This document shows, piece after piece, positions 144 to 59,862 of a stretch of DNA of 64,000 bases; positions within the stretch are counted from its first letter, which is position 1, and every line of letters starts with the position of its first letter. A program made the position numbers and the translations under genes. Below the pieces are notes generated by a model. The model made no database searches, had not been told where the DNA came from, and saw only the letters and a program-made list of their open reading frames with translations. Origin of the DNA: Nitrospiraceae bacterium (GTDB lineage: Bacteria > Nitrospirota > Nitrospiria > Nitrospirales > Nitrospiraceae); the NCBI GenBank assembly GCA_050246315.1, contig JBFWWG010000008.1, positions 1 to 64,000 on the forward strand. Direction: 5' to 3'.

Positions 144-1175
144 CTACCCTGGCCCACTATTCGCGTCTACATAAGCTTCGACAGCTAGCCGATGGCCCGT
201 TCCGTTGGGATGCACATTGTCTTCCGCGGTCACCTGCAGCTTGCGATATGACATTGCCGAATAAGTGTCGACCAAGTCCAAGACTCTAAAACCTCTCTGT
301 TCCGCCTCATGCCTGACCCTCTCATGAATCTGGGCAAATGCATATGTCCTAAAATCCACCAAAAGCGGCCAAATGATGAGATGGACCTCGAATGATTTCG
401 CCAATCGAAGCTCCTGGAGCTTATCGAAACCTGCAGAAACCCGCTGGTAACAATGGTCTTGGTTCCATAGATTGAGATAATAGTTGCTCTCCCCTCTCCC
501 GGTGATCATGCCGACCAGATGTTCGACCCTGCTCTTCACAAAGTAAATGAGCGCCGACGACTTGAGCAATCGCTTAATCCTCGGATCGATACTAATGTCT
601 CCCAAAAGACCAATCTTGGTATCCTTGTCCTGAGTGAACTGTTTGGCCGCATGGAACTCGGAGAAAAAGTCACAATCATTGAGCACAAAATTCACAATCA
701 CCACATCCGGATCATACCCCAGCCCTTCGACCTCCAGGATATGCACCTCCTGCGGGGTATTGAGGCCGCTCATGCCAAGATTGATGACTTCATATCGAGG
801 ACCAAGGCTCTTTTGTAATCGACTCGAGAAGATGTCATCCCCCTCCACTCCGGAACCCTCAGTCACCGAATCCCCAAGGACGACCAGTCGCTTGACTCCG
901 GGGGGCTTCTTTTTTTCATGTTCGCGATCCCTGAATCCTGCACTGTTATAGGATAGAACGACCCTTCCGTCCTGAACTCTTGAGTTTGGGATGAATCGCC
1001 AATTGAGAATGGGGTCGTCCACGAGACGAATATTGCCAATTTGCGATTCCGGCGCGCCCGCATACCCAAGGGATCGCAACGTCGCTTCACCCAAAACGGC
1101 TGACACCGCGAGCGATCCAAACAACAGCATCGCACTCATAAATATATTCGCGGTGTGTCGATACATACCTCTCAT
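144..1175 (-). CDS. SGNH/GDSL hydrolase-family protein with N-terminal membrane anchor
   Basis: Blocks VLGDSVTEG, NLGMSG, VLND and DNVHPN; hydrophobic N-terminus ending LGEATLR. Confidence 0.88.
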   Translation of the reverse strand: MRGMYRHTANIFMSAMLLFGSLAVSAVLGEATLRSLGYAGAPESQIGNIRLVDDPILNWRFIPNSRVQDGRVVLSYNSAGFRDREHEKKKPPGVKRLVVLGDSVTEGSGVEGDDIFSSRLQKSLGPRYEVINLGMSGLNTPQEVHILEVEGLGYDPDVVIVNFVLNDCDFFSEFHAAKQFTQDKDTKIGLLGDISIDPRIKRLLKSSALIYFVKSRVEHLVGMITGRGESNYYLNLWNQDHCYQRVSAGFDKLQELRLAKSFEVHLIIWPLLVDFRTYAFAQIHERVRHEAEQRGFRVLDLVDTYSAMSYRKLQVTAEDNVHPNGTGHRLAVEAYVDANSGPG

Positions 1176-6529: not shown

Positions 6530-6648
6530 TGCTCCTCCACTCCACCCGAGCCTCGAACCCACGTCGCGTCTTTGTCTGATCGAGCATGCCGACGCCGGAG
6601 CGACACCGCACGGGTGTTCGCTCCGCTGACTCCATTCCCGACTCTACC

Positions 6649-7757: not shown

Positions 7758-7910
7758 TCAGAAGAGCGTGTAGATAAACGGTGCCACTGCGGACCCTTGC
7801 GTAAAGACGATCAGACTTCCCAAGAGCACCAGTACGACGATGATCGGCAACAGCCAAAACTTCTTTCGTTCTTTCATGAACGCCCAGAGTTCGCCCAAGA
7901 ATTCGCCCAT
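7758..7910 (-). CDS. DUF5989/SxtK-family small membrane protein (50 aa)
   Basis: Not in the ORF track. Manual translation: MGEFLGELWAFMKERKKFWLLPIIVVLVLLGSLIVFTQGSAVAPFIYTLF*. GGGGAGGGG RBS; directly downstream of the SxtJ gene. Confidence 0.9.
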   Translation of the reverse strand: MGEFLGELWAFMKERKKFWLLPIIVVLVLLGSLIVFTQGSAVAPFIYTLF

Positions 7911-7928
7911 GGTTTCCCCTCCCCTTGG

Positions 7929-8324
7929 TCAGAACATATTCTTCATATGCGATGGCGGCCTCGGCTCCCGGACCACCCGGTACGTATCCATCCCCGGGAC
8001 CAGGGCCCGCCTCATCGGGTCTCGGCCGAGCATTTTCATCACAAGCCCCATCGGCACCACGAGCCCGTAATAGAGAATGCCCAGAATAATCCTGGTGTTA
8101 ATCCACCCCAGCACATGTCCCACCGCCATCCAGCCCTTGTAAAGTGGGGCCAACACCCTGGGGAGGATAAGACCGGCCGGAATCAAGCCAGCGGCCGGAA
8201 TGACCGCCCAGAGTCGAATCGCTTCGCCGCGCCATACCAGGGGCCAGAGGCCGATGACGAGGAACACGCCCCCCACCGTAAGCCCGAAGCTGCGTAGTTG
8301 TTTCACATCCGTCTGTTCGTTCAT
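7929..8324 (-). CDS. SxtJ-family membrane protein
   Basis: LRSFG N-terminus; P.YKGWM..G..LGWINTRIIL; GRDPMRR; C-terminal MKNMF. Confidence 0.88.
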   Translation of the reverse strand: MNEQTDVKQLRSFGLTVGGVFLVIGLWPLVWRGEAIRLWAVIPAAGLIPAGLILPRVLAPLYKGWMAVGHVLGWINTRIILGILYYGLVVPMGLVMKMLGRDPMRRALVPGMDTYRVVREPRPPSHMKNMF

Positions 8325-8351
8325 CGTGCTCTTTCTCCTACGGCAGAATCG

Positions 8352-9488
8352 CTAACGCTTTGAAGGATCCCACGAGAGAATACGATCTCCCCGCAGGTAC
8401 CGGAACCAGGCATCCAGGATCGACACGTTGACCATGACAAAGAACGACGGCAGCCGCAGCATGGCGACCTTCGGCAGCCGTCGAGACCACAGGTAGAGCA
8501 TCGCCAGGCCATAGAACACTCCCTGCGCCCAGAACAAGGTCCGGTACCAGCCTGGATCGAGGGCGAGCAAACCATTCGTGACGAAGGCGACGATTAGGGC
8601 AAACGGCACCGTCCAGCGGCAGAGCTTATGGCTGATCAGTTGCCATGCGAAGAGATGATACTTGAACGGATTCAGCAACGCGAGACTTCGCATGAATACG
8701 GAAATGCCACGCACGACCGTCCGCACCTTCCGCTCATACTCTTTCCGTTCATCCGCCAGATTCTTGTAGTAGCCGACGCTCTCCTCATCGGATACGCCTC
8801 GCAAGCCCCTTTTGACGCTGTTCAACAGGGTATTGAAGTCACTTTGCAGATCCGACGCCCAATCCCGACAGACTTCGCGGCGGGCGGCAAAAAATGACCC
8901 GCTGAGCCCGACCAAACTGTTCACGCTTGTCTCCAGGCGTCGGAGCCACATCTCGTATTGAACATAGGCACCTTCGCCGCTCACCTGCCCGTCTTGATCG
9001 ATGAAACGATCGACGCTGCTGACACAGCCGACGCTGGGATCGGCAAAGTTCTTGACGATAGTCCTGATTCCGTTTGGTGGAAGCAGGGTGGCCACATCTG
9101 AAAACACCAGAATGTCACCTGTCGTCGATTCGACGGCAAACTTCTGAGCCGCCTCTTTGCCGCCCTTGGAGGGCAACCGAACCAGCCGGACGCCGGTGGC
9201 TCGGTACGTTCGGACGATGTCATCAGTTCGATCCGTCGAACAGTCCGAGGCAACCACAATGTCCAAACGTTCCTTCGAGTAGTCCTGCGCCAACGCATTT
9301 TCGATTTTTTCCTGGATTCGTTTCTCTTCGTTGTAAGCCGTAATGATAAAGGCCACCGAGGGCTGAATGGCCTCCTTTTGCACGACCCGTTTTCGAACCG
9401 TACCAAGACTCCATAGCAATAGCGGGTACCCCAGATAGGCGTACCCCACGAATAGGACCGAGAGCCAAAAAAGCCAGGCAGTCATCAT
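8352..9488 (-). CDS. Glycosyltransferase family 2 (membrane-associated)
   Basis: YLGYP N-terminal TM; IITAYNEE; SDCSTDRT; SHKLCRW; C-terminal TM helices. Confidence 0.9.
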   Translation of the reverse strand: MMTAWLFWLSVLFVGYAYLGYPLLLWSLGTVRKRVVQKEAIQPSVAFIITAYNEEKRIQEKIENALAQDYSKERLDIVVASDCSTDRTDDIVRTYRATGVRLVRLPSKGGKEAAQKFAVESTTGDILVFSDVATLLPPNGIRTIVKNFADPSVGCVSSVDRFIDQDGQVSGEGAYVQYEMWLRRLETSVNSLVGLSGSFFAARREVCRDWASDLQSDFNTLLNSVKRGLRGVSDEESVGYYKNLADERKEYERKVRTVVRGISVFMRSLALLNPFKYHLFAWQLISHKLCRWTVPFALIVAFVTNGLLALDPGWYRTLFWAQGVFYGLAMLYLWSRRLPKVAMLRLPSFFVMVNVSILDAWFRYLRGDRILSWDPSKR

Positions 9489-9495
9489 AGCCGAC

Positions 9496-10800
9496 CTAGT
9501 GATGTGAACGTGGCGATGACGCCAACGCCGACTCGCTTCGTGAGGAACCTCTGGCGACCGCTGACGAACGCAAGCCCGACGCGCCGCACTCCACCGCTCG
9601 CCCCCCCGCGCTCGCTTCCCGGAGAACCTCGCAGATCCTGGCTCTATCCGCCTGTGTTACAAACCGGTGGGTCGGAAGCGTGACCAGCCGCGCCACTACC
9701 TCCCTTGCTCCAGGATATTCGCGGCGATCCAGCCGATCCTGTAACTCTGGAATCTGCTGGATGGTGCCGGGATAGGCCGCGCTGATCCCCAGCCCAAGCG
9801 AGGCCGCGCGCGCGCACAGGGTCGACTTGGCCGTAGAGTCGCGGACCAGAATGGGAAGGCGCAGGTAACAGGCTTCCGGAGCCGTCACCACCTGGACCTC
9901 AGGAACCAGAACGGATAAGTCCTGAATGAGCGCTTGAGCCTGCTCGCAGCGGGTTCGGTTGGCTGCCGCCAGCCTCTGACGCCAGCCTGCTAGCGTGCCG
10001 GCCCGTGCCTCGGCCATTCGTGCCACCGGGAAGTCTCGATAGAATCGCGTCTCTCCCAGTCCGAGAAACGGCAATCCAGCCGGCAGCCAATAGAAGGGTG
10101 GGCGAATGAGCACCTCGGTGGCCGCCAACTCGACCAGATTTCCGGCGGCGGTCCATCGCGATTCCCTGGAAAGTTGGTCATAGGATTCCCGGATCGCCGC
10201 CGCGAGGGTTGCCGACCCGGTGACGATCACCCCGCCGCCTCCGCTGGATAGATTCTTGCCGCGACCAAGGCTAAAGAACCCCACGTCTCCGATCGTCCCC
10301 AACCGTTGCCCCCGCCGCATCCCTCCCATCGCCTGGGCTGCATCCTCCACCACCGAAATGCCTCTCGGGCGACACAGAGACCGGACTTGTTCCACATCGG
10401 CCGGCAATCCAAACAAGTGCGTCGGCAGGACACAGAGCGTTTGGTCGTCGAGGAGCCGGGTCAGTTGCTCGTGGTCAAGATCCAATGTGGCCGGATTGAC
10501 ATCACACAATGCGACATCGAGTCCTGCTTTCACCACGGCCGATGGAACCGAGTAGCAGGTATAGGCAGGCATCAGCACCTTGCGACGCGGCGACAACTTC
10601 CGAAGACCGGACAGAATCAGCGCTAATGCCGCCTTGCCGGATGAGACCAGAAACACATGGTCGAGGCCGTATTCGTCGCGCACCTCCCGCTCCAACCGAG
10701 AACGGCAGGAGTCTGTTGAGAGAAGCGCGGCGCACCCGGCGAGGAGCCCTCGAAGCGAAACCGGCGCGGCTGTGGGGGGGAGTGTGGACTGGATCTTCAT
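9496..10800 (-). CDS. DegT/DnrJ/EryC1/StrS-family PLP aminotransferase
   Basis: SSGKAAL, PAYTC, HLFG, VEDAAQA and FSLGRGKN (PLP lysine). Confidence 0.88.
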   Translation of the reverse strand: MKIQSTLPPTAAPVSLRGLLAGCAALLSTDSCRSRLEREVRDEYGLDHVFLVSSGKAALALILSGLRKLSPRRKVLMPAYTCYSVPSAVVKAGLDVALCDVNPATLDLDHEQLTRLLDDQTLCVLPTHLFGLPADVEQVRSLCRPRGISVVEDAAQAMGGMRRGQRLGTIGDVGFFSLGRGKNLSSGGGGVIVTGSATLAAAIRESYDQLSRESRWTAAGNLVELAATEVLIRPPFYWLPAGLPFLGLGETRFYRDFPVARMAEARAGTLAGWRQRLAAANRTRCEQAQALIQDLSVLVPEVQVVTAPEACYLRLPILVRDSTAKSTLCARAASLGLGISAAYPGTIQQIPELQDRLDRREYPGAREVVARLVTLPTHRFVTQADRARICEVLREASAGGRAVECGASGLRSSAVARGSSRSESALASSPRSHH

Positions 10801-11840
10801 GGCAGGTATTTTACAATGTGCGGACCGAGCGCGTTGGCGATGGGCAGGGGCAGATTCCGCCAGAGCGAGATCGCCAGACGATATCGGGGATTGTCGGGGT
10901 TCAACTCCGGCAAGGGCCTGTCATCCTTGAGCCAGTAATACCAATACAATGGGACCGGCTTCGCTCCCCACTGTTCCTTGAAGCGATAGGTTCCACTGTT
11001 CACTGTCGATCGTCCGAAATCAAACACCTTGCAACCTTGCTGGCAGGCATATTCAAGGACCGCGTTGTACAACAGCATATTGGGGGCCAGCCGATCATAC
11101 CGTCGATCCGAGGAAGCCCAGGGAATCTCCATCATGTCCCGAAACGAGTAGACCAATCCTGCCGCCACCACACGCCCCTTCAAAAAAACCGAGCACACAG
11201 CCGTTTCCTTGGGGAACGTCTCCAGGATGGTGCGAAAGAACGCTTTCCCATAGACCGGAGTCCCAAGATCTCGCATGTTGCGCGAGAAGACTCGGAAAAA
11301 CTCCTCCAACAGGTCGGCACCGCCGAACTTCACCGTCATCCCTTCCTTCTGAGGTCGCCGAATCTGGCTCCTCAGCTTGGACGGAAAACTCTTGAAGAGC
11401 ATTTGGAAGTCGCCCGGCAGCGCCAGTCGCATGGAAACCTTGTGCTGCTTACATCGCCATCCGATCGGTAATGGCTGGGCTTGCCTGATTTCCACATGGC
11501 TCGCACCAAGCGCATTCGCTTCCTGCGCAGCGGCCTCCAATAGGCACTCTCTAACCTCCCGATCCGCTGCATCCAACCCACCGTAGTTGAGGAACGGCAT
11601 CGAGACCAGGAAACGGCCGAACAGCCGGCTCGCCAGCGCGACCAGCGGCAACACGCCTCGCACATCCCCGTGCGAATCCCGGGCCATGAGATAGACGGTC
11701 TGATGCCCGCAGGCCTGCTCAACCACCTGTCGCCAGGCGGTCAGGTGATACCCGGTCGCCGTCGAAGACTCAAGCACGTAGCGGTCCCACAAGGCAATCG
11801 CCGGCTGATTCCTGCTCAATCTTTCAACCCGGTATTCCAT
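10797..11840 (-). CDS. FemAB-related GNAT protein, PEP-CTERM/XrtA system-associated
   Basis: SRLFGRFLVSMPFLNYGG, NMRDLGTPV, FDFGRS, FKEQWG and LNPDNPRY motifs. Confidence 0.9.
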   Translation of the reverse strand: MEYRVERLSRNQPAIALWDRYVLESSTATGYHLTAWRQVVEQACGHQTVYLMARDSHGDVRGVLPLVALASRLFGRFLVSMPFLNYGGLDAADREVRECLLEAAAQEANALGASHVEIRQAQPLPIGWRCKQHKVSMRLALPGDFQMLFKSFPSKLRSQIRRPQKEGMTVKFGGADLLEEFFRVFSRNMRDLGTPVYGKAFFRTILETFPKETAVCSVFLKGRVVAAGLVYSFRDMMEIPWASSDRRYDRLAPNMLLYNAVLEYACQQGCKVFDFGRSTVNSGTYRFKEQWGAKPVPLYWYYWLKDDRPLPELNPDNPRYRLAISLWRNLPLPIANALGPHIVKYLP

Positions 11841-11888
11841 CGTGTCTTCAGAGCTTACCTGCTCTGTACCGTACCAACTCGCAAGATT

Positions 11889-13280
11889 TCACCGGCTCTC
11901 TCGGTGCTCTTTCCACACGTCATTTAATACCCCGGCAAGATCCGCAGTCAGACTCCGATAGTTGAATCGATCGAGTTCTTCCTGAGGCGGGGCCGATAAT
12001 ACGCGCCGCCCTTCGAGTACATCGGTGATCACTCCTCGGATCTCATCCACATCGTTTCGGCAGACGAGGCCGAGTCGGTGCCGTTGGACAAGATTGGCGG
12101 TCGCCCCGTCTCCCCCAACTAGAAGCAGCGGGCGTCTCGTCGCAATATACTCATAGATCTTGCCCGGAATTTGAAGCGGGGAATCCGGTTGAATCACCAA
12201 CAAGGCGTCGGCCTCCCGCATCTGTCGGAGACATTCCTGGTACGGCACCGGTGGCTCGCGTATGAGCAGCCCGACTTTTTCCAGCCGTTGCGCGAGTTCT
12301 TCGCATTGCGGCTCAGATACTTCCCACGCCCCGATGAACCTGAGTCGCAGCCGTCCACCGGATAGACGTCCTTCACGATGGAGATCGACGAGGGTCTGAA
12401 AGAGGACCGCTGGGGTGCGCTTTCCATACACCGTTCCGAAATGGCAGAGTTCGAGCTGTGATCCACTTGCTTCGAGCCTTCGCTCGACGTTGCCCACGCC
12501 AGCAAGGTCCGCGCCAAACGAATCCGGATCAAAGCCGTTCGTGATGGTCAACGTCTTGCCGGTCAGGTCAGGATAGTCCTGTTCAAGTTGCACCCGCAGT
12601 TCATGCGTATTGGTCATCACCCTGCTCGCACCGCAGCAGACCGACCGCTCAAGATCGTAGGCCTTGGCGTTAAGATACGATGACCCGAATGAGACATAAG
12701 GATTGCTGGTCCACGGATCGCGGTAATCCACCACGTAAGGGACTCTCCAGTATTGAGCAAGCCGCCTCCCGACCAGATGGCTTGTCCAGGGCCCACCGGT
12801 CGCCCACACCACGTCGGGAATCTCACTCTCCGGCCAATGTCTCGGGAAGGCCGCCGCCGGCGAGAGCCATGGACACTGCGGGTCTGGAAACGCGAATCCC
12901 CAGTCGAGGACCAAATTCTTGAGTTGCTCAAGCCTCTCGCGCCTCGCTGTCGGGCTCCCCTCCCCGGATACCCGGACGGGTTGTCCAACGACCGGCTCAT
13001 CCTTCCCTGCCCACATGACATCCCGCATGCAATCTCGCCAGGCTACCAACCGCCGGAGGGGATTGCCATGGGGGACCACATCGACCTTCACCGAGGCCGG
13101 AAGTTTCTTCATCAATTGGTAATCCACCGGGTGAGGCGGATGCACGGACACAGCATCGGTCGTGAGCACACGCGGCAACCACCCGTAGGACTCGAGATAC
13201 CGACAGAAGGCAAGCGGCCGCATCGCTCCACTGGCGGAGACCGGAGGAAAGTAATAGGCGATGATCAAAACCTTCTTCAT
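11889..13280 (-). CDS. Glycosyltransferase family 4
   Basis: IAYYFPP, DYRDPW, TNGFD and PGKIYEY motifs. Confidence 0.87.
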   Translation of the reverse strand: MKKVLIIAYYFPPVSASGAMRPLAFCRYLESYGWLPRVLTTDAVSVHPPHPVDYQLMKKLPASVKVDVVPHGNPLRRLVAWRDCMRDVMWAGKDEPVVGQPVRVSGEGSPTARRERLEQLKNLVLDWGFAFPDPQCPWLSPAAAFPRHWPESEIPDVVWATGGPWTSHLVGRRLAQYWRVPYVVDYRDPWTSNPYVSFGSSYLNAKAYDLERSVCCGASRVMTNTHELRVQLEQDYPDLTGKTLTITNGFDPDSFGADLAGVGNVERRLEASGSQLELCHFGTVYGKRTPAVLFQTLVDLHREGRLSGGRLRLRFIGAWEVSEPQCEELAQRLEKVGLLIREPPVPYQECLRQMREADALLVIQPDSPLQIPGKIYEYIATRRPLLLVGGDGATANLVQRHRLGLVCRNDVDEIRGVITDVLEGRRVLSAPPQEELDRFNYRSLTADLAGVLNDVWKEHRESR

Positions 13281-13378
13281 TGGCAGGGTCGATCGGCCCC
13301 GATCACCCAGAAGGGCTGTCCTCCTTCCCGGCAGATGGTCAGGTCGGCGGGCCGTGCACTACCTGAAAGCCGTTTCGG

Positions 13379-14629
13379 CTAGACCACGGCAGTCCTTCTC
13401 TGTTTCATCCTGAAGCTTTCGGCCACTGCACCCGCCTGTTCGTCGAGAAGGAGCGCATCTACATAAAACTTGGTTGCCCAATTCAACACTTCAAACCGGC
13501 CGTACTCTCCATTGAAGGGACTCGATCCTTTGATGCCCCCGCGAAGGCCTCCGTTTTCGCTCTCGCAGTTTTGCGAGGCTTTCAGGAACCGGATAAGCTG
13601 CCGGGCCCCTGCGAGGAATTTCTCGTCCCCTTCTTTTAAGAACAGGCGCAGCCAGATTCCGGCCAATTGCGCATTGCCTGTGAGGCAACTCCAAGTCACG
13701 GTTCCCTGCCACTGATGATTCAGCCTCCCCGGCATGCTCCCGTCCTCGCGCACAGCTCCCAACAGCCTCTCGGCGCTGAGCTTGGCGTAATGAAGATAGT
13801 CCGCATGCTTCAGCAATTCCCCCGCTTCCCAAATTCCCTCAATGGCATAACTGATTGTATGCAAGAGCGGCGCAGCGGAATCGGTGAGACAATTGTTGCG
13901 AAACCATCCATTGGTGTTCTGCTGGCTGAGGCTGAATCGGATGTTCCGTTCGCCCGCCTCCACATAACGCGGGTCTCCGCAAGATTGGCCGAGGAGGATC
14001 AACGACCACCCCACGCGCGAATTGTACGTGGTGGAGGTAGGATTGGCGAATTCCGAGTTCCCCTTCAGCCACCCTCCATCCTTCTGTTGAACCGCGAGGA
14101 GGTAGCTGCCTGCTCGCTTGGCCGCATCGAGATACTTGGCCTCTTGCGTTTGCTGGAATGCGGCAACCCAGCCGAGGATAACCTGGCCCGTGTTGAACAC
14201 CGCCGGAGTCGGATGACTATTAAGGACGCCGCCCATGACCGCCCCGTTCGACATCTGGACATCAATTTCCCAGTCCGCCATGGCCAGCGCGCGTGTTCTG
14301 AGGTCAGGATCATGCAGATATCGGCTGACATCAAGAAACGTTGGAATAATGTAGCCGGTTGTCTCCGGATAGGACGGCTGCCATCCCCTCGCGCGGAAGA
14401 ATGGATGCCAGGCTGAGCTGTAGGCCCGTGAAACCCCGCGGTCCGGGGTGGCATCCTGGGCCCGCTTGATCCATTCCACCGCCTCCAGCAGATGAAACCT
14501 GTTGTGCTTCGTCATAACACCGCGTTGTTCCGCCTCTCGGCGCAGTTCTTGATATGCTTCCTGGTTGTAAAACCTGGAAACCTTGACCCGATGTTGAATG
14601 CCCTGAATCACGCGTTGAATCATGGCCAC
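13379..14629 (-). CDS. Uncharacterised (alpha/alpha)-barrel protein with prenyltransferase/squalene-cyclase-like repeats
   Basis: Repeated QxxDGxW-like units (QMSNGA, QQKDGGW, QNTNGWF, REDGSM); SYPETTGY motif. Confidence 0.65.
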   Translation of the reverse strand: MAMIQRVIQGIQHRVKVSRFYNQEAYQELRREAEQRGVMTKHNRFHLLEAVEWIKRAQDATPDRGVSRAYSSAWHPFFRARGWQPSYPETTGYIIPTFLDVSRYLHDPDLRTRALAMADWEIDVQMSNGAVMGGVLNSHPTPAVFNTGQVILGWVAAFQQTQEAKYLDAAKRAGSYLLAVQQKDGGWLKGNSEFANPTSTTYNSRVGWSLILLGQSCGDPRYVEAGERNIRFSLSQQNTNGWFRNNCLTDSAAPLLHTISYAIEGIWEAGELLKHADYLHYAKLSAERLLGAVREDGSMPGRLNHQWQGTVTWSCLTGNAQLAGIWLRLFLKEGDEKFLAGARQLIRFLKASQNCESENGGLRGGIKGSSPFNGEYGRFEVLNWATKFYVDALLLDEQAGAVAESFRMKQRRTAVV

Positions 14630-14639
14630 GAGTTTCCCC

Positions 14640-15635
14640 TCAGGCGGAACGTTTGGTCGACTTCATCACAACCTTTTCCATGACATAACGGAGCGGAATC
14701 GTCGCACCGAACAGTTTCTCGCAGGCAAACGCCGTCGCGTAGTATTTTCTCAACAAGCCGGGGGCATGCTTCTCAAGAATTCCGTTGAGAAAAAAGGCAT
14801 CGAACAGATACTTGTGAAACCCAAATCCCACGCCTCGTCCCTGCAAGCCGCGCATCCGACTCCCTTCCAGCCAGGGCTTGACCTCGAACCAGTGATTGTA
14901 GTTGTCGTAGCTGATTCCCCACTCGGAGAACGGCGAGAGGGATCGAAAGAACAACTTGAACGGGGCGTTAAAGATAGGTTGCAGCTTGGACATCCGGATC
15001 TCCTTCCAGATCGTTTTCAGATTCCAAGTATTGTACAGCTCCAGAATGAGGTCGCCGTTGGCCTTCGTGATTCGACAGAGTTCTCGAACGGCTCGCTCTT
15101 GTTGCTTCAGGTGCTGAATGACTCGGCAACTGATGACCGTACTAAAAAGATTGTCCTTGAACGGCAGATGCTCCAGTTCGCAGCAGACGTGAAAATGGCC
15201 TCGCTTCCGTCGATGCGCGGCCCGGAGGAGGTTGAGCGACGCATCGATTCCAACCGAGACGGTCGCTGGTGGCAGCGTCTCCAGGAACCGGCCGTTTCCA
15301 CAACCAGCATCCAGCAACAGATCGAGCTTGGTCTCATCAAAATAGTAGGTGAGCCCATAGATCTCCGACTCATGATTGTAGATGCCGAAGATCGAGCCAG
15401 CGCCTTCGACATTCGCATCGTACAGATGCGCCTTGTCCTCGGCGTCCCAATACCGCGTGAAAAGCTGTTTCATTTCCGTTTCAACATTACAGGGAAACAG
15501 CACCGGAATCCCGTCGACGATCGGGAAGACGAATGTGCATGCCGCGCACAGGAATGCGGATTCGTCGGCTCGCAACGTCAGATCGCCTTTACATTTGGGA
15601 CAGCACAACATGCCGTAAAACGCCGCTCTATCCAT
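14640..15635 (-). CDS. SAM-dependent methyltransferase with N-terminal Trm112-like zinc domain
   Basis: LCCPKCKG...CAAC...FPIVDGIPVL, then LLDAGCGNG and LPFKD. Confidence 0.85.
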   Translation of the reverse strand: MDRAAFYGMLCCPKCKGDLTLRADESAFLCAACTFVFPIVDGIPVLFPCNVETEMKQLFTRYWDAEDKAHLYDANVEGAGSIFGIYNHESEIYGLTYYFDETKLDLLLDAGCGNGRFLETLPPATVSVGIDASLNLLRAAHRRKRGHFHVCCELEHLPFKDNLFSTVISCRVIQHLKQQERAVRELCRITKANGDLILELYNTWNLKTIWKEIRMSKLQPIFNAPFKLFFRSLSPFSEWGISYDNYNHWFEVKPWLEGSRMRGLQGRGVGFGFHKYLFDAFFLNGILEKHAPGLLRKYYATAFACEKLFGATIPLRYVMEKVVMKSTKRSA

Positions 15636-15734
15636 GGCTTTGCGATCCTCTTTCTCTCAGGTCCGCATTCTGAATCTCTACACACACTGGTTCCTGGTGG
15701 CGCATCCCGATCCCGGCACCGCACACATCGTCCT

Positions 15735-16856
15735 CTATCGCCCCCTGTACTGATCGAGCAGAATCGTAACAATGCGCTCGGCGGCCTGACCATCCCACAG
15801 AGGAGGAGGAACCGGGGGCTGAATGGGGTGATCGAGGACCTTGGTTGCCTCGGACACGATCTTCGCGGGGCTCGCTCCGATCACCCGATTGGTGCCATGC
15901 GTCACGGTCACCGGACGCTCCGTGTTTTCCCTGAGTGTCAGACACGGAATCCCGAGAACCGTCGTTTCCTCCTGTAATCCGCCGGAGTCCGTCAGCACCA
16001 TTCTCGCGTTTGCGACCAAGGCCATAAAGTCGAGATAGCCGATGGGGTCCATGCATCGAATGCCGGCCGGAGGCACGGGTCCGTGACCGAAGTGGAGGCA
16101 GGCATGACGGCGGACCAACGATTTCAGCGCGCCGATCGTTCTGGGATGTACCGGGAAGACGAGCGGGCAACGTTGCGCCACCGTGCAGAGCGCTTCAACG
16201 AGTCCCTCCAGAGTCTTGAGGTCGTCCACGTTGGAGGGTCGATGGAGCGTCACCACCCCATACTGGGCTTTGCTGAGATGAAGCTGCTCCAAAATATCGG
16301 AGCGGGTCCAGAGTCGGCGTGACGATTCGAGCGAGTCGATCATCACATTGCCCACGAAAAAGATCTTCTCCCGCGCAATGCCTTCGGCTTTGAGATTTTT
16401 CTCTCCGCTCTCCTCGGTGACAAACAACAGGTCGGACACCCCATCGGTCACGAGCCGATTGATCTCCTCAGGCATCGACCGATCATAGCTTCTCAGTCCG
16501 GCCTCGACATGAGCCACCTTGATCTTCAGTTTGACCGCCGTCAAGGCGGCGGCCATGGTCGAATTGACATCGCCGACGACAAGGACCAAGTCCGGTCGTT
16601 CGCGTTCCAGCACCGGTTCCAGTCGCTTCATCACCTCCGCCGTTTGCACGGCATGCGTCCCTGACCCGACCTCCAAGGAGACATCGGGGCGCGGAATCTC
16701 CAGATCCTCAAAAAATCGGCCGGCCATACTCGCATCATAATGCTGTCCTGTATGAACCAAGACCGACCGAATTTCCGGACGCTTGCGCATGGCTTTGATG
16801 AGGGGAGCAATTTTCATGAAATTCGGCCGCGCTCCCACCACGCTGACAATCTTCAT
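15735..16856 (-). CDS. wecB: UDP-N-acetylglucosamine 2-epimerase (non-hydrolysing)
   Basis: GARPNFMK, HTGQHYD, HVEAGLRS, PEEINR, TDSGGLQEE and TERP motifs. Confidence 0.95.
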   Translation of the reverse strand: MKIVSVVGARPNFMKIAPLIKAMRKRPEIRSVLVHTGQHYDASMAGRFFEDLEIPRPDVSLEVGSGTHAVQTAEVMKRLEPVLERERPDLVLVVGDVNSTMAAALTAVKLKIKVAHVEAGLRSYDRSMPEEINRLVTDGVSDLLFVTEESGEKNLKAEGIAREKIFFVGNVMIDSLESSRRLWTRSDILEQLHLSKAQYGVVTLHRPSNVDDLKTLEGLVEALCTVAQRCPLVFPVHPRTIGALKSLVRRHACLHFGHGPVPPAGIRCMDPIGYLDFMALVANARMVLTDSGGLQEETTVLGIPCLTLRENTERPVTVTHGTNRVIGASPAKIVSEATKVLDHPIQPPVPPPLWDGQAAERIVTILLDQYRGR

Positions 16857-16902
16857 AGGGTCCTCACACGCATATACATAGAGAACAGTTCGTCACTCCG
16901 GG

Positions 16903-18864
16903 CTAGGCCGGCACGGCCGCCTCGGGATGGCCTCCAGCAATCTCCCGCGGCTCGGCGGTGCGACTCCCGTCGCCCGGACGAACGAATGGCGGTCCTATCA
17001 GATCCGCAATCATCTCAAATTCGGCGAGGTGGAACAGATCGTGGTGGACGTCAATTTCTCCCTGCCGGTGTCGCTCAAGATCCCTCACTACCCTGGGAAC
17101 GTTGTAAATACCACGCTCCCTGACCGACCGGCTGGCCAGCAGGTCCGCCATGGGCTCGTAGAGATCATGGGCAAACCATTTCCGTCCCGCCGTTGGAAAC
17201 CCCATCTTGTCCGGCCGCGCCCGAACCGATTCGGGGATGCGGCCCCGCATGGCCTCGCGCAAGATGAATTTGTTCCAGGGCCCCCGCACCTTCCATTCCG
17301 CCGGGAGGCCGAACAGCAGTGATACCACACGATAGTCGAGGAACGGCAGTCGAGTTTCCACTGAGTGCGCCATTGAATTCCGATCTTCGATCCGGAGATA
17401 CAGCGGAAGCGGGAATTCCGTGACGGCCCGCTTCAACATGCCGTTGAGCCGGTTGAGGCCGCTGGCCCGCTCTCCGCTCGGGAAACATGCCGTCAGGTCC
17501 CCTGTGAACCACGGATGACTCCGAACCTTTTGGTCGTACCGCCTGTCCGACAGGAAGCGATACGGGGAGAGCCCGTGTAGCGCCGTCATCAGGAGACTCA
17601 AGGAGGCGTCCGTGAGGGAATGGAGCGGGCTCCCTCCGTGCACTGCTGCATACGCGCGAACTTGCGCATCCGCGTCGCTGAATCGTCCTCTGCTCAGCAG
17701 TTCGCGCCAGTAGTCGAGAAAGAAGCTAAAGTAGCCGCCGATCGTTTCATCCGCCCCCTGGCCATTCAGTACGACTCGAATGCCATGGCCGGCCACCAGG
17801 TTCATCAGCCGATACCCGACCGCTGCCGTCATCGTGTGGACCGGCTCATCCTGATACCACAGCATGCGGCGGAGGTTTTGCCATAGATCCATCGGATTCG
17901 TCTGAAGTTCTCGTAATTGGGCTTTCGTCTCGGCGAGCGTATCGGCAATGTACTTGGACTCATCAAACTCCTTAGCCATATAACAGAAGGCTTGGAGCGG
18001 TCCTGAGGCCGATTGATTACTTTCGGCGCGTTGCCTCGCCGCAGCACATATAATCGACGTCGAGTCGAGGCCGCCAGACAGACACACCCCGACGGGGACA
18101 TCGCTCCGCATCCGAAGCCGCACCGCGTCTTCGAAGAGGTCGGCAAACGCCGCGGGCGGGTCATGGACATCGACGGACGGCAGCCGATCCAGATCCCAGT
18201 ACGTCCATAATTTCCACCTGCCGCCAAGATCCAGCTCGAAAGCCGACCCTGGAGGAATGGGATCAATCGCGTCATAGAAACTTTCGCTGCGGTCATCCAG
18301 ATGACCTTCGACGAGGAAGCGGGAGGCCGTGGTCCAATTCACGCCCCCACGATACAATCCGGATGCGCGGATCGCCTTGATCTCGGAAGCCAAGAGCACG
18401 TGATCCTTCTGCCGGTGGACGTACAGAGGCTTGACCCCGAAGCGATCACGGGACCCGAACAGACGATGATTGGCCTTATCGTAGATGACGAAGGCCCACA
18501 TCCCGTTCATTTTCGGCAAGCATTCCGCGCCCCACTGACGATAGGCGGTCAGCAAGACCTCGGTATCTCCGGTGGAGCGAAATCGATGTCCGAGATCAGT
18601 CAACTCGTCACGCAGCTCCACGTAATTGAAGATTTCTCCGTTGAACACGAGCACGAACCGTCCATCGCCGCTGACCATGGGCTGATGGCCAGCCGCGGAC
18701 AGATCAAGAATGGCCAATCGACGAAACCCGAGTCCCACAGGACCGTCGAGGAAGTACCCGCCGTCGTCCGGGCCGCGATGAACGAGACTCTGCGTCATGC
18801 GCTCGAGCGCCGCCGCATCGGCGGGTTTTCCAGCCATCCCACACATAATGGCAATGCCGCACAT
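16903..18864 (-). CDS. asnB: Asparagine synthase (glutamine-hydrolysing)-family amidotransferase
   Basis: MCGI N-terminus (start moved to 18864); HRGPD, NGEIFN, RDRFGVKPLY, LSGGLDS and GQGADE motifs. Confidence 0.93.
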   Translation of the reverse strand: MCGIAIMCGMAGKPADAAALERMTQSLVHRGPDDGGYFLDGPVGLGFRRLAILDLSAAGHQPMVSGDGRFVLVFNGEIFNYVELRDELTDLGHRFRSTGDTEVLLTAYRQWGAECLPKMNGMWAFVIYDKANHRLFGSRDRFGVKPLYVHRQKDHVLLASEIKAIRASGLYRGGVNWTTASRFLVEGHLDDRSESFYDAIDPIPPGSAFELDLGGRWKLWTYWDLDRLPSVDVHDPPAAFADLFEDAVRLRMRSDVPVGVCLSGGLDSTSIICAAARQRAESNQSASGPLQAFCYMAKEFDESKYIADTLAETKAQLRELQTNPMDLWQNLRRMLWYQDEPVHTMTAAVGYRLMNLVAGHGIRVVLNGQGADETIGGYFSFFLDYWRELLSRGRFSDADAQVRAYAAVHGGSPLHSLTDASLSLLMTALHGLSPYRFLSDRRYDQKVRSHPWFTGDLTACFPSGERASGLNRLNGMLKRAVTEFPLPLYLRIEDRNSMAHSVETRLPFLDYRVVSLLFGLPAEWKVRGPWNKFILREAMRGRIPESVRARPDKMGFPTAGRKWFAHDLYEPMADLLASRSVRERGIYNVPRVVRDLERHRQGEIDVHHDLFHLAEFEMIADLIGPPFVRPGDGSRTAEPREIAGGHPEAAVPA

Positions 18865-18996
18865 GTCTTCCTTCTTTGTTCCGTCCACCCAGGCTGGAAG
18901 AACGGGCTCGGTTGCCCACCCTCTGGCTCACCGGGATGGGCTTCGTGCCACTCGATCGATCATTCGATCCGGCGCTGAACGGGCGCCCTGCGGACC

Positions 18997-20001
18997 CTAA
19001 GCCACCTGCCGGAAGTACTCGATAGTTTTTCGCAGGCCATCCTCGAGCTCGACCTGAGGCTCCCACCCCAGGAGCAACTTCGCACGTCGGATATCGGGAC
19101 GTCGGACCTTGGGATCATCCGCGGGAAGCGGGCGATGCTCGATCGCGCTCTTGGAACCTGTCAGTCGTAGCACGAGGTCCGCAATGTCTTTCACGGTCAA
19201 CTCCCGTGGATTGCCGATATTGACCGGATCATGGATCGTCTCCGGCAGCGGCTGAGAGGATTTCGTGAGAAAGGTAGACCGATCGGTCCGTTGATCCACC
19301 GTCTTGTCCGAATCCGCCAACAGCAAAGCCGTGATGCCCCTAACAAGGTCATCGGCATAACAAAAACTCCGAGTTTGAGTCCCGTCTCCGAATATGGTCA
19401 GCGGCTTCCCCTGCAGCGCCTGCACGATAAAATTCGAGACGACACGGCCGTCGTTCGGCCGCATCCGGGGACCGTACGTATTGAAGATACGCACGATCCG
19501 GGTATCCAAGCCGTGATAGCGATGGTACGCCATCGTGATGGCTTCCGCGAATCGCTTGGCCTCATCGTATACGCCTCGGGGGCTAATCGGATTGACGTTC
19601 CCCCAGTAGGATTCCGGCTGCGGATTGACCAGCGGATCCCCATAGACCTCGGAGGTGCTCGCAAGCAGCAGCCGTGCCCCTTTTGCCTTCGCCAAGCCGA
19701 GGGCCTTGTGGGTTCCCAACGCTCCCACTTTAAGGGTCGCGATCGGCATTTCCAGATAGTCCTGCGGACTGGCCGGAGAGGCAAAGTGCAGGATCGCATC
19801 CAGCGGGCCATCCACGTGCAGATAATCACAGACATTATACTTAATGAAACTGAATCGAGAATGCCCCATCAGATGCGCAATGTTTTCTGTACGACCCGTA
19901 ATGAGGTTATCCATCGCGACGACCTCGTGCCCCTTGCTAACCAACAGATCGCTCAGATGACTGCCCAAGAACCCGGCTCCGCCGGTAATCAAAATTCGCA
20001 T
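18997..20001 (-). CDS. UDP-glucuronate decarboxylase (UDP-xylose synthase) family SDR
   Basis: [40 protein letters not shown] and [10 protein letters not shown] motifs. Confidence 0.9.
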
Positions 20002-20028
20002 GGTACGTTTCCTCCTCTAGAACAATGA

Positions 20029-21141
20029 CTACGCCGCGCTCGCTGTTGCAGGGACTAGCGCCCGTTCATCCAACTGCCCAAGAAGATGTGCCTTTAGGGA
20101 CCCGGTGAGAATCCGATAGGCGCTGGCGGTCGGGTGACCATCGTAGTAGTACTCCCGGGGATGTTTTTTCCACCTTCTTCGCATCTTCCCAAATGGTCTC
20201 CTTGGTGGAGAGATAGGGAATGTGGTGCGCTTCAAACAGGTTTCGCAGGAAGAGTTCACGCCAATCAGCCGGGTCATCAGAGATCCAGCCTGGATAAAAG
20301 ATGAGAAACAGATGTGGCAGGTTTCGCCGCTTCAGTTCTGCATCCATCGCCAGGATGATTTTCTCATTTATCGCCTTCTTGGCTAGAACCTGCCCTTCCG
20401 TTCCAAGAATGAGCTTTCTGAGTCTGTAGAAGCGACCATCCCGATTCGCCCACATGCGGGCAAGGTACGACACAATTTGAGGAGAATGCTCCTGGAAAAA
20501 GACGGTGGGGCGTTGGTCGACCGGCACTCCCTTCAACACAAGTGCATCGTTCTCAATGTGAAAGAACGGCTTCTGTCCAATTCTGACCGCTAGTGCGCTA
20601 CGATCGAGATCCTGTGTCATGATGCCCACAATGACAAATGGATTCTGATAGTGAGGTCGCTTTCAGCGACCAGACACATCTGATCGACGCCATAGCCCTC
20701 AACACCGTAGTTCAATAGAAAGAATCGCTCGTTCAATTGGGCATCGCTGTTCACAATACCCTGGAAGCAATCTTGCTTATTATCGATTATTGAACACTCC
20801 GCAAAGGAGTCTCCATAGAGAAGAATGGGAATCTTGTTTCCTACCTTGTGCGCATCGTTATGGAGGTAGGTACCTGGAGAAAATGCCCCAATCCACCCCA
20901 ATTGAGGATGAGGCTGTGCCGGGGGTTTGAACCTTCCGCCGAAGAAATAGTACAGCTTCCAGCAATCATCGTCTGAGTCCCATTCGCCATAGAGATCGGG
21001 ATTCCGAAAGCGTTGCATGAATCCCACTTCAGAGAACAGCAGAAGCCGAAATATTGCCTCGCACACTACTGCCGTGCCGACAGAAATAACAAGGATGGAG
21101 CAGGTCCAGAGAAGTAGTCTGCGAGGAAACCGGCTGCGCAT
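20029..21141 (-). pseudogene. Frameshifted SGNH-like membrane-anchored protein (three reading-frame pieces)
   Basis: 20617-21141 has the TM, LYGDSF and NYGVEGYGVDQ; 20066-20629 continues (..QNPFVIVGIMTQDLDRS..); the 20029 frame supplies YYYDGHPT. Shifts lie near 20650-20675 and at the T6 run 20164-20169. Could be an assembly error. Confidence 0.75.
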
Positions 21142-21232
21142 GCCCTACCCTCACGTGCTCAGCAATTTCCATGCACTTGGTTCCAACCCCGCCTGTTCAG
21201 AAGGAGCGATGAGCGCGGACATCCCCATGAGC

Positions 21233-23077
21233 CTAATCGAGCTCGAATTCCTTTTTCCAATCGCTGTCCGCTTCCAACGGTTGCTGATCTGCTTTGTATA
21301 GAATGCAATTCTCCAACACCAATACATCCATCTCCGTGCGCATGAAACATCGATACGCATCCTCGGGTGTACACACGATGGGTTCACCTCGGACATTGAA
21401 GGAGGTATTCACCAACACCGCATAGCCGGTCTTGGCTTCAAAGGCCTTGAGGAGGCGATAATAGCGCGGATTCGTGTCTTCATGGACGGTTTGGACACGC
21501 GCCGAGTAATCGAGATGAGTAATCGCAGGTATGTCCGAGCGAGGGACATTCAACAAATCGATGCCCCACAGCTCCTTGTGGGCCTGCGTCATGGGACAGC
21601 GCCTTCGTTCGAGAACCGGAGCGACGATCAGCATGTAGGGGCTGTCCGCATTTAAATCGAAATAGTCCGCCACCCGCTCTCGCAAGACCGACGGCGCGAA
21701 GGGCCGGAAGGACTCTCGATATTTGATCTTCAGGTTCATCACCGACTGCATCTTCGCACTCCGAGCGTCGCCCAGGATACTCCGTCCACCCAGTGCACGA
21801 GGGCCAAATTCCATCCGCCCCTGTAGCCACCCGACCACCTTCTCCGCCGCCAACTCCTCTGCAACTCGCTCCAGCAACGTGACATCGTCCAGCCGCACAT
21901 ATGGGACACCCTTCTCCTTTAAGAACCGCTCGACCTCCACGTTGGAGAATGCCGGTCCCAGATACGACCCCCGCATCTTGTCTCTTATGCCGTCTGAGAT
22001 TCTCGGCTTGCGCTCAAATTGATGCCAGACACTCAGCGCAGCGCCGAGCGCCCCGCCGGCATCGCCGGCCGCAGGCTGAATCCACAGCCCTTTGAAGGGT
22101 CCTTCCCGGAGAATCCGGCCGTTCCCCACACAGTTCAACGCGACTCCGCCGGCCAAGCACAGATTCTCCACACCGGTCTCTCGATGCAGGGTGCGAGACA
22201 ATCGCAACATGACCTCCTCGGTCACTTCCTGGATCGAGCGCGCCAGATCCATTTCTCGCTGCGTCAACTTGGATTCTGCCTTGCGCGGCGGCCCGCCGAA
22301 GATCTCGTCGAACTTCCGGCCTGTCATTGTAAGACCCGTACAATAGTTGAAGTACTCCATGTTGAGCCGAAAAGTGCCGTCCGGCTTGAGGTCAATGAGG
22401 TGTTCGTAAATCGCCTTCACATACTTAGGCTCACCATACGGCGCCAAGCCCATCACCTTGTACTCGCCGGAGTTGACTTTGAACCCCGTGTAATACGTAA
22501 AGGCTGAATAGAGCAACCCCAATGAATGAGGGAAAGGGATCTCCCAGAGAGGCGTCAAGGTGTTTCCCTGCCCCTTCCAAGCCGATGTTGTGGCCCACTC
22601 TCCCACACCGTCCATGCAGAGGACGATCGCCTCCTCATAGGGCGAGGCAAAAAAGGCCGACGCCGCATGAGATTCGTGATGCTCGGCGAACAATAGAGAC
22701 GGCAACGCTGCCTTCGTCATTCCATTCCCGTGCACCAGAAATTCCTTCACGAGGAGGCTTCGCAGCAGCAGCTTTTCCTTCATCCAGACCGGCATCGCCG
22801 CAAGAAACGACTGCACTCCCTTCGGAGCGAAACCCAAATAGGTTTCCAATAGCCTCTCGAACTTCACAAGCGGCTTGTCGTAGAACACTAAATAGTTCAC
22901 ATCCTTTAATGCTATTCCGCCCGCCTGCAAGCAGTACTCAACCGCTCGATGCGGAAACCCCGGGTCATGCTTCTTGCGTGTGAACCGCTCCTCTTGGGCT
23001 GCCGCCACGATATTTCCATCTTGAACCAGCGCCGCCGCACTGTCATGGTAGTAGGCTGATATACCAAGAATATTCAT
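21233..23077 (-). CDS. O-carbamoyltransferase (NodU/CmcH/TobZ/SxtI family)
   Basis: ILGISAYYHDSAA, EERFTRKKH, HHESHAASAF, DGVGE, GGVALNC, EFGPRALG, KYRESFRPFAP and NTSFNVRGEP motifs. Confidence 0.95.
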   Translation of the reverse strand: MNILGISAYYHDSAAALVQDGNIVAAAQEERFTRKKHDPGFPHRAVEYCLQAGGIALKDVNYLVFYDKPLVKFERLLETYLGFAPKGVQSFLAAMPVWMKEKLLLRSLLVKEFLVHGNGMTKAALPSLLFAEHHESHAASAFFASPYEEAIVLCMDGVGEWATTSAWKGQGNTLTPLWEIPFPHSLGLLYSAFTYYTGFKVNSGEYKVMGLAPYGEPKYVKAIYEHLIDLKPDGTFRLNMEYFNYCTGLTMTGRKFDEIFGGPPRKAESKLTQREMDLARSIQEVTEEVMLRLSRTLHRETGVENLCLAGGVALNCVGNGRILREGPFKGLWIQPAAGDAGGALGAALSVWHQFERKPRISDGIRDKMRGSYLGPAFSNVEVERFLKEKGVPYVRLDDVTLLERVAEELAAEKVVGWLQGRMEFGPRALGGRSILGDARSAKMQSVMNLKIKYRESFRPFAPSVLRERVADYFDLNADSPYMLIVAPVLERRRCPMTQAHKELWGIDLLNVPRSDIPAITHLDYSARVQTVHEDTNPRYYRLLKAFEAKTGYAVLVNTSFNVRGEPIVCTPEDAYRCFMRTEMDVLVLENCILYKADQQPLEADSDWKKEFELD

Positions 23078-40014: not shown

Positions 40015-40026
40015 CAATCTTGCCTG

Positions 40027-40758: not shown

Positions 40759-40787
40759 CAGATTGCCGCCAAGTGTGCCGTCGAGCT

Positions 40788-59800: not shown

Positions 59801-59862
59801 CTTCGTTCTTGCTCCTTAAGGGTTGCGCGCACAAGATCTCCTTGAAACTAGGGGATACCGGA

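Follow-up and report, generated by a model that had tools for sequence, protein, structure and literature searches.

Two routes have been described by which acyl groups are transferred to extracytoplasmic acceptors, one in which an MBOAT protein works with an SGNH protein and one in which acyltransferase-3 (AT3) and SGNH domains are joined, and both proceed through an acyl-tyrosine intermediate (PMC12148441). In DltX and in PatA-type MBOATs the motif FXYXXF was shown experimentally to be an 'acyl shuttle', in which an invariant extracytoplasmic C-terminal tyrosine carries the acyl group from the MBOAT to the active-site serine of the SGNH protein (DltD or PatB). PatB accepts a synthetic acetyl-FIYANF peptide as donor, and other pathways are said in that account to be without a DltX-like microprotein (PMC12148441). 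Here we describe a 50-residue DUF5989 microprotein, encoded in a 64-kb stretch of Nitrospiraceae DNA (contig C8; the whole stretch is referred to as the window), which also encodes a carbamoyltransferase, the small membrane protein SxtJ and membrane-anchored SGNH proteins. We propose, tentatively and as a reading that falls a little short of probable, that DUF5989 is an analogue of DltX in function, a free-standing microprotein that serves as a tyrosine acyl shuttle and hands carbamoyl groups to SGNH transferases within this four-part module.

The module has a counterpart in the saxitoxin gene cluster, as pointed out in the initial annotation of this DNA. That cluster lists sxtI, sxtJ, sxtK and sxtL in a row, encoding a carbamoyltransferase, SxtJ, a 54-residue SxtK and a GDSL protein; the functions of sxtJ and sxtK are entered there as 'unknown', the two are said to act 'in conjunction' with SxtI, and SxtL is proposed to be a decarbamoylase (PMC2679770). 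In a June 2026 preprint the joint action of SxtJ and SxtK with SxtI was still hypothesized. The same four kinds of protein are found in the window, but in the saxitoxin system the acceptor is a small alkaloid and not a polymer. SxtK is a putative DUF5989 member by virtue of its size, its position and the Pfam name of its neighbor.

Carbamoyltransferases with the same two domains, namely TobZ, NovN, GdmN and WapO, have no SxtJ or SxtK to work with. To WapO, from Pseudomonas, carbamoylation of the lipopolysaccharide (LPS) core is assigned, and the gene table given for its cluster has no SxtJ- or SxtK-like neighbor (PMC8005017). The crocagin cluster offers a second and independent case in which an SGNH protein is paired with a carbamoyltransferase; it is described as containing the slow leader-peptide hydrolase CgnD, the carbamoyltransferase CgnI and a precursor, CgnA, with a core tyrosine (PMC10070186). 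Among solved folds, that of CgnD comes nearest to the SGNH partner; CgnD is soluble and cleaves a leader peptide, whereas the SGNH proteins of the window are membrane-anchored and lie in polysaccharide clusters. Our literature searches returned no mention of 'DUF5989', no paper joining 'acyl shuttle' with 'carbamoyltransferase', nothing relevant beyond WapO on O-carbamoyl polysaccharide, carbamoyltransferase and SGNH, and no proposal of a carbamoyl tyrosine shuttle.

The DUF5989 microprotein and its tyrosine tail

The DUF5989 (SxtK-like) gene was located at 7758..7910 on the minus strand, and its product matched PF19451 with an E-value of 6e-28 (97.1 bits against a curated cut-off of 27, over profile positions 2-49 of 49). 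The peptide consists of a basic amphipathic N-terminal segment, a single transmembrane (TM) segment and a 14-residue tail, GSAVAPFIYTLF-COOH, which holds the FxYxxF motif, the translation ending in FIYTLF. Only two of the 84,539 stop-to-stop frames of at least 30 residues in the genome carried FxYxxF at the C-terminus, and the DUF5989 peptide was one of these. A search of 1.84 billion cluster representatives (clusters at 50% identity) gave 3,687 DUF5989 matches at E ≤0.001.

Conservation was assessed in 80 DUF5989 loci from many phyla (Nitrospirota, Alpha-, Beta-, Gamma- and 'Delta'-proteobacteria, Cyanobacteria, Acidobacteriota, Elusimicrobia, Rokubacteria, Acidimicrobiia and Pelagibacteraceae), 56 of which had full flanks, that is, at least 1.8 kb of DNA on each side. 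The motif stood at the C-terminus of the peptide in all 80 loci in the form F[IV]Y[TA][LIV]F, the last six residues being FIYTLF in 60, FIYTIF in 15, FIYALF in two, and FVYTIF, FIYTVF and FVYTLF in one each. The peptides were 64-92% identical to that of the window within the best tblastn segment, and 61-92% when aligned in full. Among 83 aligned sequences, which take in the second DUF5989 copy of the genome and a 43-residue relative from locus L053, residues L20, P22, P44, Y47 and F50 were invariant and the best-conserved stretch was the tail, G39-S-A-x-A-P-F-I-Y-T-x-F50. The tyrosine was kept in 83 of 83 sequences, two of which were at 35-40% identity, and in 81 of them the tail was 14 residues long with the tyrosine 11 residues past the hydrophobic core. 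Every one of the 83 had at least three lysine or arginine residues in the N-terminal flank (mean 4.5) and at most one in the tail (mean 0.08). Because of this charge bias, the positive-inside rule predicts a cytoplasmic N-terminus and a periplasmic tyrosine tail.

A wider set of 236 database proteins had the exact C-terminal motif in 187 cases, an internal motif followed by an apparent read-through tail in 31, and no motif in 18, many of the last being truncated or frameshifted; this set was drawn partly from a search for longer proteins and is therefore enriched in read-through and frameshifted forms. Database entries in which DUF5989 seems fused to SxtJ or to Carbam_trans_C have the look of adjacent genes joined by read-through or frameshifted gene calling, and were taken as evidence of adjacency only.

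In architecture DUF5989 resembles the DltX component of the DltX-DltB-DltD system, in that both are microproteins of about 50 residues with one TM segment, a C-terminal FXYXXF that is extracytoplasmic (predicted so in DUF5989), an invariant tyrosine and a membrane-anchored SGNH partner (a candidate partner in the case of DUF5989) (PMC12148441). The DUF5989 module differs in having neither an MBOAT nor a carrier protein: the donor would be a soluble ATP-dependent carbamoyltransferase, the membrane partner the three-TM SxtJ, and the group transferred carbamoyl rather than an aminoacyl ester. DUF5989 also occurs mainly in diderm phyla and has no detectable sequence relation to Pfam DltX. With PatA/PatB-type pairs it shares the hexapeptide and the arrangement of TM segment, short linker and motif, but the DUF5989 tail is encoded by a separate gene and most DUF5989 genomes have no MBOAT of any kind.

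The report in the initial annotation that the window lacks MBOAT and AT3 genes was borne out for all 59 window open reading frames (ORFs) scanned, and extended to the whole genome, which is 100% complete (30 contigs, 4.4 Mb) and has Nitrospira metagenome-assembled genomes as its nearest relatives. Across this genome we counted one SxtJ, one true carbamoyltransferase and two DUF5989 genes, with no MBOAT and no AT3. A sample of 151 evenly drawn Nitrospirota genomes, each at least 90% complete, was also analyzed. MBOATs were missing from 31 of the 45 DUF5989-positive genomes in this sample and from 35 of the 48 which carry the 343-residue SGNH type described below, as well as from 30 of the 50 genomes holding the fetched loci (of completeness not known, several being 5-6 Mb assemblies). 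Searches with jackhmmer placed an MBOAT within 10 kb in five of the 80 loci (L008, L036, L048, L053 and L081). Each of these MBOATs has its own tyrosine tail, ending FLYFQF, FIYFQF or FIYFDF (F[IL]YF[DQ]F), and the last TM segment and tail align in register with DUF5989, if weakly (hhalign P 0.0024, probability 12%). An AT3-SGNH fusion was seen in one of the 80 loci.

The second DUF5989 copy of the genome lies outside the window on contig C5 (L006:8552-11704), is 59 residues long and ends AIYSIF. It follows, on the same strand, the gene for a 449-residue membrane polyferredoxin (Fer4_5 plus dicluster) and is convergent with a gene for a 488-residue SGNH protein. This copy belongs to a subgroup of 59-residue paralogues with the C-terminus AIYS[IV]F or AIYAIF, thus AxYxxF and not FxYxxF, in which the tyrosine was present in 31 of 31 members. 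The polyferredoxin pairing repeats in another genus (L087), where a radical-SAM gene replaces the SGNH gene, and an SGNH gene stood beside the paralogue in three of the five loci examined. A separate observation concerns locus L053, which has at 9112-9243 on the minus strand a 43-residue single-TM micro-ORF ending FLYALF. It lies downstream of an MBOAT gene, whose product has its own FIYFDF tail, and of three SGNH genes, and is divergent from the SxtJ-DUF5989-carbamoyltransferase block of that locus.

Carbamoyltransferase, SxtJ and SGNH partners

The elements named in the initial annotation, namely the carbamoyltransferase, SxtJ, the FIYTLF peptide and three SGNH proteins, were all recovered in place by Pfam scanning and translation. 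The carbamoyltransferase gene (21233..23077, minus strand) encodes a 614-residue NodU/CmcH/TobZ-type O-carbamoyltransferase with no TM segment, which comprises a Kae1-like Carbam_trans_N domain (PF02543, E 8e-113, 378 bits) and a YrdC-like Carbam_trans_C domain (PF16861, E 8e-74, 247 bits) and aligns over its full length to NovN (E 4e-99), GdmN and TobZ. An insertion of 21 residues, at about residues 493-513 of the YrdC-like domain and just before the ITHVD motif, has the consensus R.PM[TS]..[EQ]..LFGI[ED]KLNVPRS. This LFGIxKLNVPRS insertion is found in the window enzyme and in nearly all enzymes of the block, a few frameshifted ones being unjudgeable, whereas it is missing from NovN and GdmN on a residue-level reading, and the matched span of TobZ is about 28 residues shorter there. 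The second enzyme copy at L014 and the enzymes of L021 and L028 also lack it. The membrane partners may dock at this insertion. An idea that SxtJ is dispensable where the enzyme has no insertion (L021 and L028) was withdrawn, as both loci have weak SxtJ-like ORFs (E 1e-5 to 1e-3).

SxtJ is encoded at 7929..8324 on the minus strand as a membrane protein of 131 residues (PF19588, E 1.7e-18; 67.6 bits against a curated cut-off of 24.4, over profile positions 1-99 of 99). The gene stops 18 nt upstream of where DUF5989 starts, and the ribosome-binding sites of both small genes are purine-rich. Three hydrophobic segments followed by a strongly basic C-terminal tail suggest that SxtJ is oriented N-out and C-in. 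In an AlphaFold2 model, residues 10-80 formed three long helices with a predicted local distance difference test (pLDDT) score above 90. W65 is the sole invariant residue, with F13, G14, L58, P91, D102 and Y115 conserved in at least 90% of sequences; His70 is not conserved, and SxtJ therefore shows nothing like the catalytic histidine of MBOATs. The initial annotation had cast SxtJ and the peptide as a conduit standing in for the MBOAT, a role for which a protein with three TM segments, a single invariant residue and no conserved histidine offers no support. The AlphaFold2 model of a natural read-through SxtJ~DUF5989 protein (P0040) had a pLDDT of 84 and a predicted TM score (pTM) of 0.56, with tail residues 180-189 below 50, and was silent on packing. 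A search of the ESM Atlas with SxtJ gave no lead.

The carbamoyltransferase, SxtJ and DUF5989 genes were closely associated. By phmmer, SxtJ was found in 74 of the 80 loci and carbamoyltransferase in 71, in the gene orders CT-SxtJ-DUF5989 or SxtJ-DUF5989-CT (CT, carbamoyltransferase). In three of the six loci without an SxtJ match (L032, L038 and L077) the sequence begins no more than about 100 bases from the peptide. Unbiased clustering of neighboring ORFs produced no further conserved family in more than 14 of the 80 loci save antisense artefacts. Within the Nitrospirota sample, matches over cut-off were obtained for DUF5989 in 45 genomes, SxtJ in 44 and Carbam_trans_C in 60. DUF5989 and SxtJ occurred together in 42 genomes, DUF5989 alone in three and SxtJ alone in two, both at contig ends. 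The enzyme was present in 43 of the 45 DUF5989 genomes, the peptide being at a contig end in the other two, and carbamoyltransferase without DUF5989 occurred in 17 of the 151. The distance between the enzyme and SxtJ-DUF5989 in the window has a parallel in other Nitrospira genera, where a comparable split of 8-9 kb was found.

Three intact SGNH proteins are encoded in the window, all on the minus strand and all with a GDS block. The gene at 144..1175 encodes a 343-residue protein with one N-terminal TM anchor (PF13472, E 1e-15; Ser103 and His322 intact), whose family is the most frequent flanker of the CT-SxtJ-DUF5989 block elsewhere. The gene at 31617..33038 encodes a 473-residue protein with three N-terminal TM segments (GDSL matches; profile match E 4e-238), a paralogue of the SGNH gene beside the second DUF5989 copy on C5. 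The third, at 42144..43649, encodes a 501-residue SGNH/AlgX-like protein, also with three N-terminal TM segments (PF16822 ALGX, E 3e-5, below the curated cut-off). The possibility that the three-TM N-terminal domains of the larger SGNH proteins are a fused SxtJ was rejected (hhalign probability 0.1-0.3%).

The broken SGNH copies mentioned in the initial annotation proved to be real. Directly downstream of the carbamoyltransferase gene, profile matches and tblastn traced an SGNH gene over three frames at 20029..21141 (minus strand), with the N-terminal half and its GDS at 20617-21141, the middle at 20066-20629 and the block-V DGHP at 20029-20277. These pieces make up one SGNH gene with at least two frameshifts as assembled, possibly through assembly error. 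A degraded SGNH paralogue remnant was found at 30906..31582 (minus strand), where tblastn with the C9:96903 paralogue matched in four fragments (E 2e-21 to 9e-8), the match having large internal gaps. The G+C content at 20001-22000, a stretch that takes in the broken SGNH gene together with the 3' part of the gene for the carbamoyltransferase, is 0.53, against 0.56-0.59 on either side.

In an alignment of 18 sequences of the 343-residue family, R82, G101, S103, P156, D167 and H322 were invariant and N166 was conserved in at least 90%, so that the block I serine, block III asparagine/aspartate and block V histidine are all present; the fold matches GDSL structures. The AlphaFold2 model of the 343-residue protein (pLDDT 85) had CgnD (8a2n) as its best PDB match, with an E-value of 1.7e-11 and a TM score of 0.56-0.64, followed by ordinary GDSL esterases from E 1.5e-7.

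Linkage of SGNH genes to DUF5989 was evident both by position and by co-occurrence. Iterated profile searches gave SGNH-like ORFs in 44 of the 80 loci; 36 of the 80, and 30 of the 56 with full flanks, have an SGNH gene no further than 600 bp from the block. In loci L066 and L075, as in the Nitrospirota genome G125, it sits between SxtJ and DUF5989. About 12 SGNH-like frames were counted in the 4.4 Mb of the window genome, and chance adjacency would therefore be expected at about 1% or less; at least six SGNH genes of this genome are membrane-anchored. A search for hidden tyrosine-tailed micro-ORFs within 3 kb of these 12 frames returned only the known C5 copy. The profile of the 343-residue family (E ≤1e-15) matched 48 of the 151 Nitrospirota genomes, comprising 40 of the 45 with DUF5989 as against 8 of the 106 without, and three of these eight are contig-edge cases which hold the enzyme or SxtJ; as related genomes are non-independent, no P value is attached to this contrast. 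By taxonomic family, 11 had both SGNH and DUF5989, two had SGNH alone, 10 had neither, and the one with DUF5989 alone rests on a sub-threshold match. Comparison of coordinates by eye placed the SGNH gene less than 5 kb from DUF5989 in at least 20 of the 45 genomes. A complex prediction for SGNH, SxtJ and DUF5989 scored 0.01 against a mark of 0.32; it was run without controls and counts neither way.

A candidate carbamoyl shuttle and its alternatives

In the mechanism we propose, carbamoyl-AMP would be made in the cytoplasm by the carbamoyltransferase from carbamoyl phosphate and ATP, and the carbamoyl group would be loaded onto the invariant Y47, which the slim and uncharged tail carries 11 residues past the TM segment, with SxtJ serving as docking and guide partner. 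The O-carbamoyl-tyrosine tail would then be offered on the periplasmic side to the active-site serine of a membrane-anchored SGNH protein, which would carbamoylate hydroxyl groups on the exported polysaccharide. As to the crossing, geometry would allow the 14-residue tail to reach back towards the enzyme through an assembly of SxtJ and DUF5989, 11 extended residues measuring about 37 Å. We infer every chemical step of this scheme, the membrane crossing above all. A tyrosine shuttle for carbamoyl, which we hold to be quite possible though a little short of probable, is the most economical explanation of five facts: the invariant FxYxxF tail, predicted to be periplasmic; the near-obligate company of carbamoyltransferase and SxtJ; the link to SGNH proteins with intact catalytic residues; the absence of MBOAT and AT3; and the experimental precedent for the motif.

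The relay put forward in the initial annotation stands in part. The DltX-type shuttle architecture of the peptide (one TM segment followed by a tail that is predicted to lie outside and ends in an invariant FxYxxF), the conserved module, the strong link to membrane-anchored SGNH proteins and the independence from MBOATs all speak for it, while the conduit of SxtJ and peptide finds no support, and roughly half of the full-flank loci have no SGNH gene beside the block. An obligate MBOAT, a non-conserved tyrosine and a cytoplasmic C-terminus, each named beforehand as counting against the relay, were not encountered at the level of sequence.

Several observations weigh against a carbamoyl shuttle. 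No path through the membrane is evident. SxtJ has three TM segments with W65 alone invariant and His70 not conserved, and no polytopic protein of unassigned family was found in the window. Carbamoyl-serine adducts of serine hydrolases usually turn over slowly. The solved structure nearest to the modeled SGNH partner is that of CgnD, a slow peptide hydrolase, with ordinary GDSL esterases next. In the window itself the enzyme is 13 kb from SxtJ-DUF5989 and the SGNH gene beside the enzyme is broken. An adjacent SGNH gene was lacking in 26 of the 56 full-flank loci, where the neighbors were unrelated housekeeping or sugar genes (in Pelagibacteraceae those for TPP enzymes and M23 peptidases, in other groups those for glycosyltransferases and dehydrogenases), and five of the 45 DUF5989 genomes lacked the 343-residue SGNH family. 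MBOATs are present in 14 of the 45 DUF5989 genomes and in five of the 80 loci, and could be the real partners of some SGNH genes. As to DltX, its Pfam family (PF12459) was not matched, hmmscan at E ≤10 returning only PF19451 (HMMER filters may drop very weak matches), and a profile search of PDB chains did not find DltX but gave only chance TM matches. Because these searches left the two unconnected and the hhalign result was weak, the likeness of DUF5989 to DltX is one of architecture and motif, not of demonstrable homology. Finally, the divergent paralogue travels with a membrane polyferredoxin and not with a carbamoyltransferase, and therefore the tail may serve other chemistry.

Of the explanations that compete with the shuttle, the one we take most seriously, while judging it unlikely, is that SxtJ and DUF5989 tether or regulate the enzyme, that is, hold or activate the soluble carbamoyltransferase at the inner membrane face so that lipid-linked sugars are carbamoylated before export, the SGNH proteins being independent esterases or acetyl-handling enzymes of the kind common in polysaccharide clusters. 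NodU/TobZ-type carbamoyltransferases are soluble and require ATP and carbamoyl phosphate. SxtJ has a long basic tail, predicted to be cytoplasmic and carrying the conserved D102 and Y115, and the conserved 21-residue insertion of the module enzyme could be a docking site; a tether would also accord with the lack of a conduit-like protein in the window and with the 26 loci that have no adjacent SGNH gene. WapO, assigned to LPS-core carbamoylation with no SxtJ- or SxtK-like gene in the table of its cluster (PMC8005017), is consistent with carbamoylation of this kind. However, the best-conserved part of DUF5989 is the predicted periplasmic tail, which a tether does not need, and an exact C-terminal FxYxxF is rare by chance. 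A tether also leaves aside the near confinement of this SGNH type to DUF5989 genomes, the insertion of SGNH genes inside the module in several loci, and the presence of at least six membrane-anchored SGNH genes with no MBOAT or AT3 to feed them.

It is very unlikely that the peptide is itself the substrate, in the manner of a RiPP, a peptide that the ribosome makes and that is modified after translation. The thought arises from the SGNH model, which matched CgnD at E 1.7e-11 against 1.5e-7 for the next structure, and from the crocagin cluster, with its carbamoyltransferase CgnI and a precursor CgnA bearing a core tyrosine (PMC10070186). RiPP precursors do not resemble a TM-anchored peptide whose identity across phyla is 61-92%, and this one is located in polysaccharide clusters or between housekeeping genes, with no genes similar to CgnB/CgnE or CgnC seen nearby. 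We consider it equally improbable that the tyrosine tail serves a different chemistry, carrying another acyl group from some other donor or having a redox or radical role, with the carbamoyltransferase link as one context of several. The AIYSxF group that follows a membrane polyferredoxin in two genera fits such a view, as do L012 and L024, which have DUF5989 and SGNH with no carbamoyltransferase or SxtJ in the sequence examined, and the 43-residue FLYALF microprotein of L053 behind an MBOAT and three SGNH genes. For the FIYTLF group, however, the carbamoyltransferase is present in all but two of the 45 genomes, both exceptions being at contig ends, and the 80 loci share no further conserved enzyme that could activate a donor.

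More broadly, and with slightly more doubt, the CT-SxtJ-DUF5989-SGNH set might constitute a third class of trans-envelope group-transfer machine, independent of MBOAT and AT3, in which an ATP-driven carbamoyltransferase loads a tyrosine microprotein and O-carbamoyl-tyrosine feeds periplasmic SGNH carbamoyl-transferases. Delivery of O-carbamoyl groups to exported glycans is not explained by the MBOAT and AT3 routes, because the known carbamoyltransferases are soluble ATP-dependent enzymes. If the proposal were true, SxtJ and SxtK would gain the function they have lacked since the saxitoxin cluster was described, and the adjacent GDSL protein would be the last transferase rather than a decarbamoylase. 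It would apply to thousands of bacterial lineages, marine Pelagibacteraceae included, and would explain why genomes such as the present one keep many membrane-anchored SGNH genes without an MBOAT or AT3. DUF5989 and SxtJ are large families without an assigned function, and the shuttle motif makes the hypothesis directly testable.

The surrounding polysaccharide cluster

A Pfam scan indicated that the window is almost wholly one minus-strand polysaccharide cluster, with genes for glycosyltransferases, sugar-nucleotide enzymes, a Wzy-like protein, a Wzm/Wzt ABC exporter, Wzc- and Wza-like proteins and an initiating transferase. The export genes lie at 49685-51972, 55244-60615 and 1310-2722 and encode Wzm/Wzt, a Wzc-like kinase, two Wza-like Poly_export proteins and a Wzy_C-type protein. 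The scan of the window ORFs did not turn up a flippase of the Wzx type. SxtJ-DUF5989 is flanked by genes for an ATP-grasp protein, a DegT-type aminotransferase and a FemAB-like GNAT protein (5327-6562 and 9496-11840), as well as a polysaccharide deacetylase (6649-7707). These genes hint at an amino-acid-decorated amino sugar in the polymer. The order GT2-SxtJ-DUF5989-deacetylase is common to the window and locus L008. In the middle of the sugar cluster, at 38395-42119, are genes for a GMC oxidoreductase, a gluconate-2-dehydrogenase subunit-3-like protein and a DUF4910/DUF2172 M28-like protein with a winged-helix domain, an unusual set for a locus of this kind.

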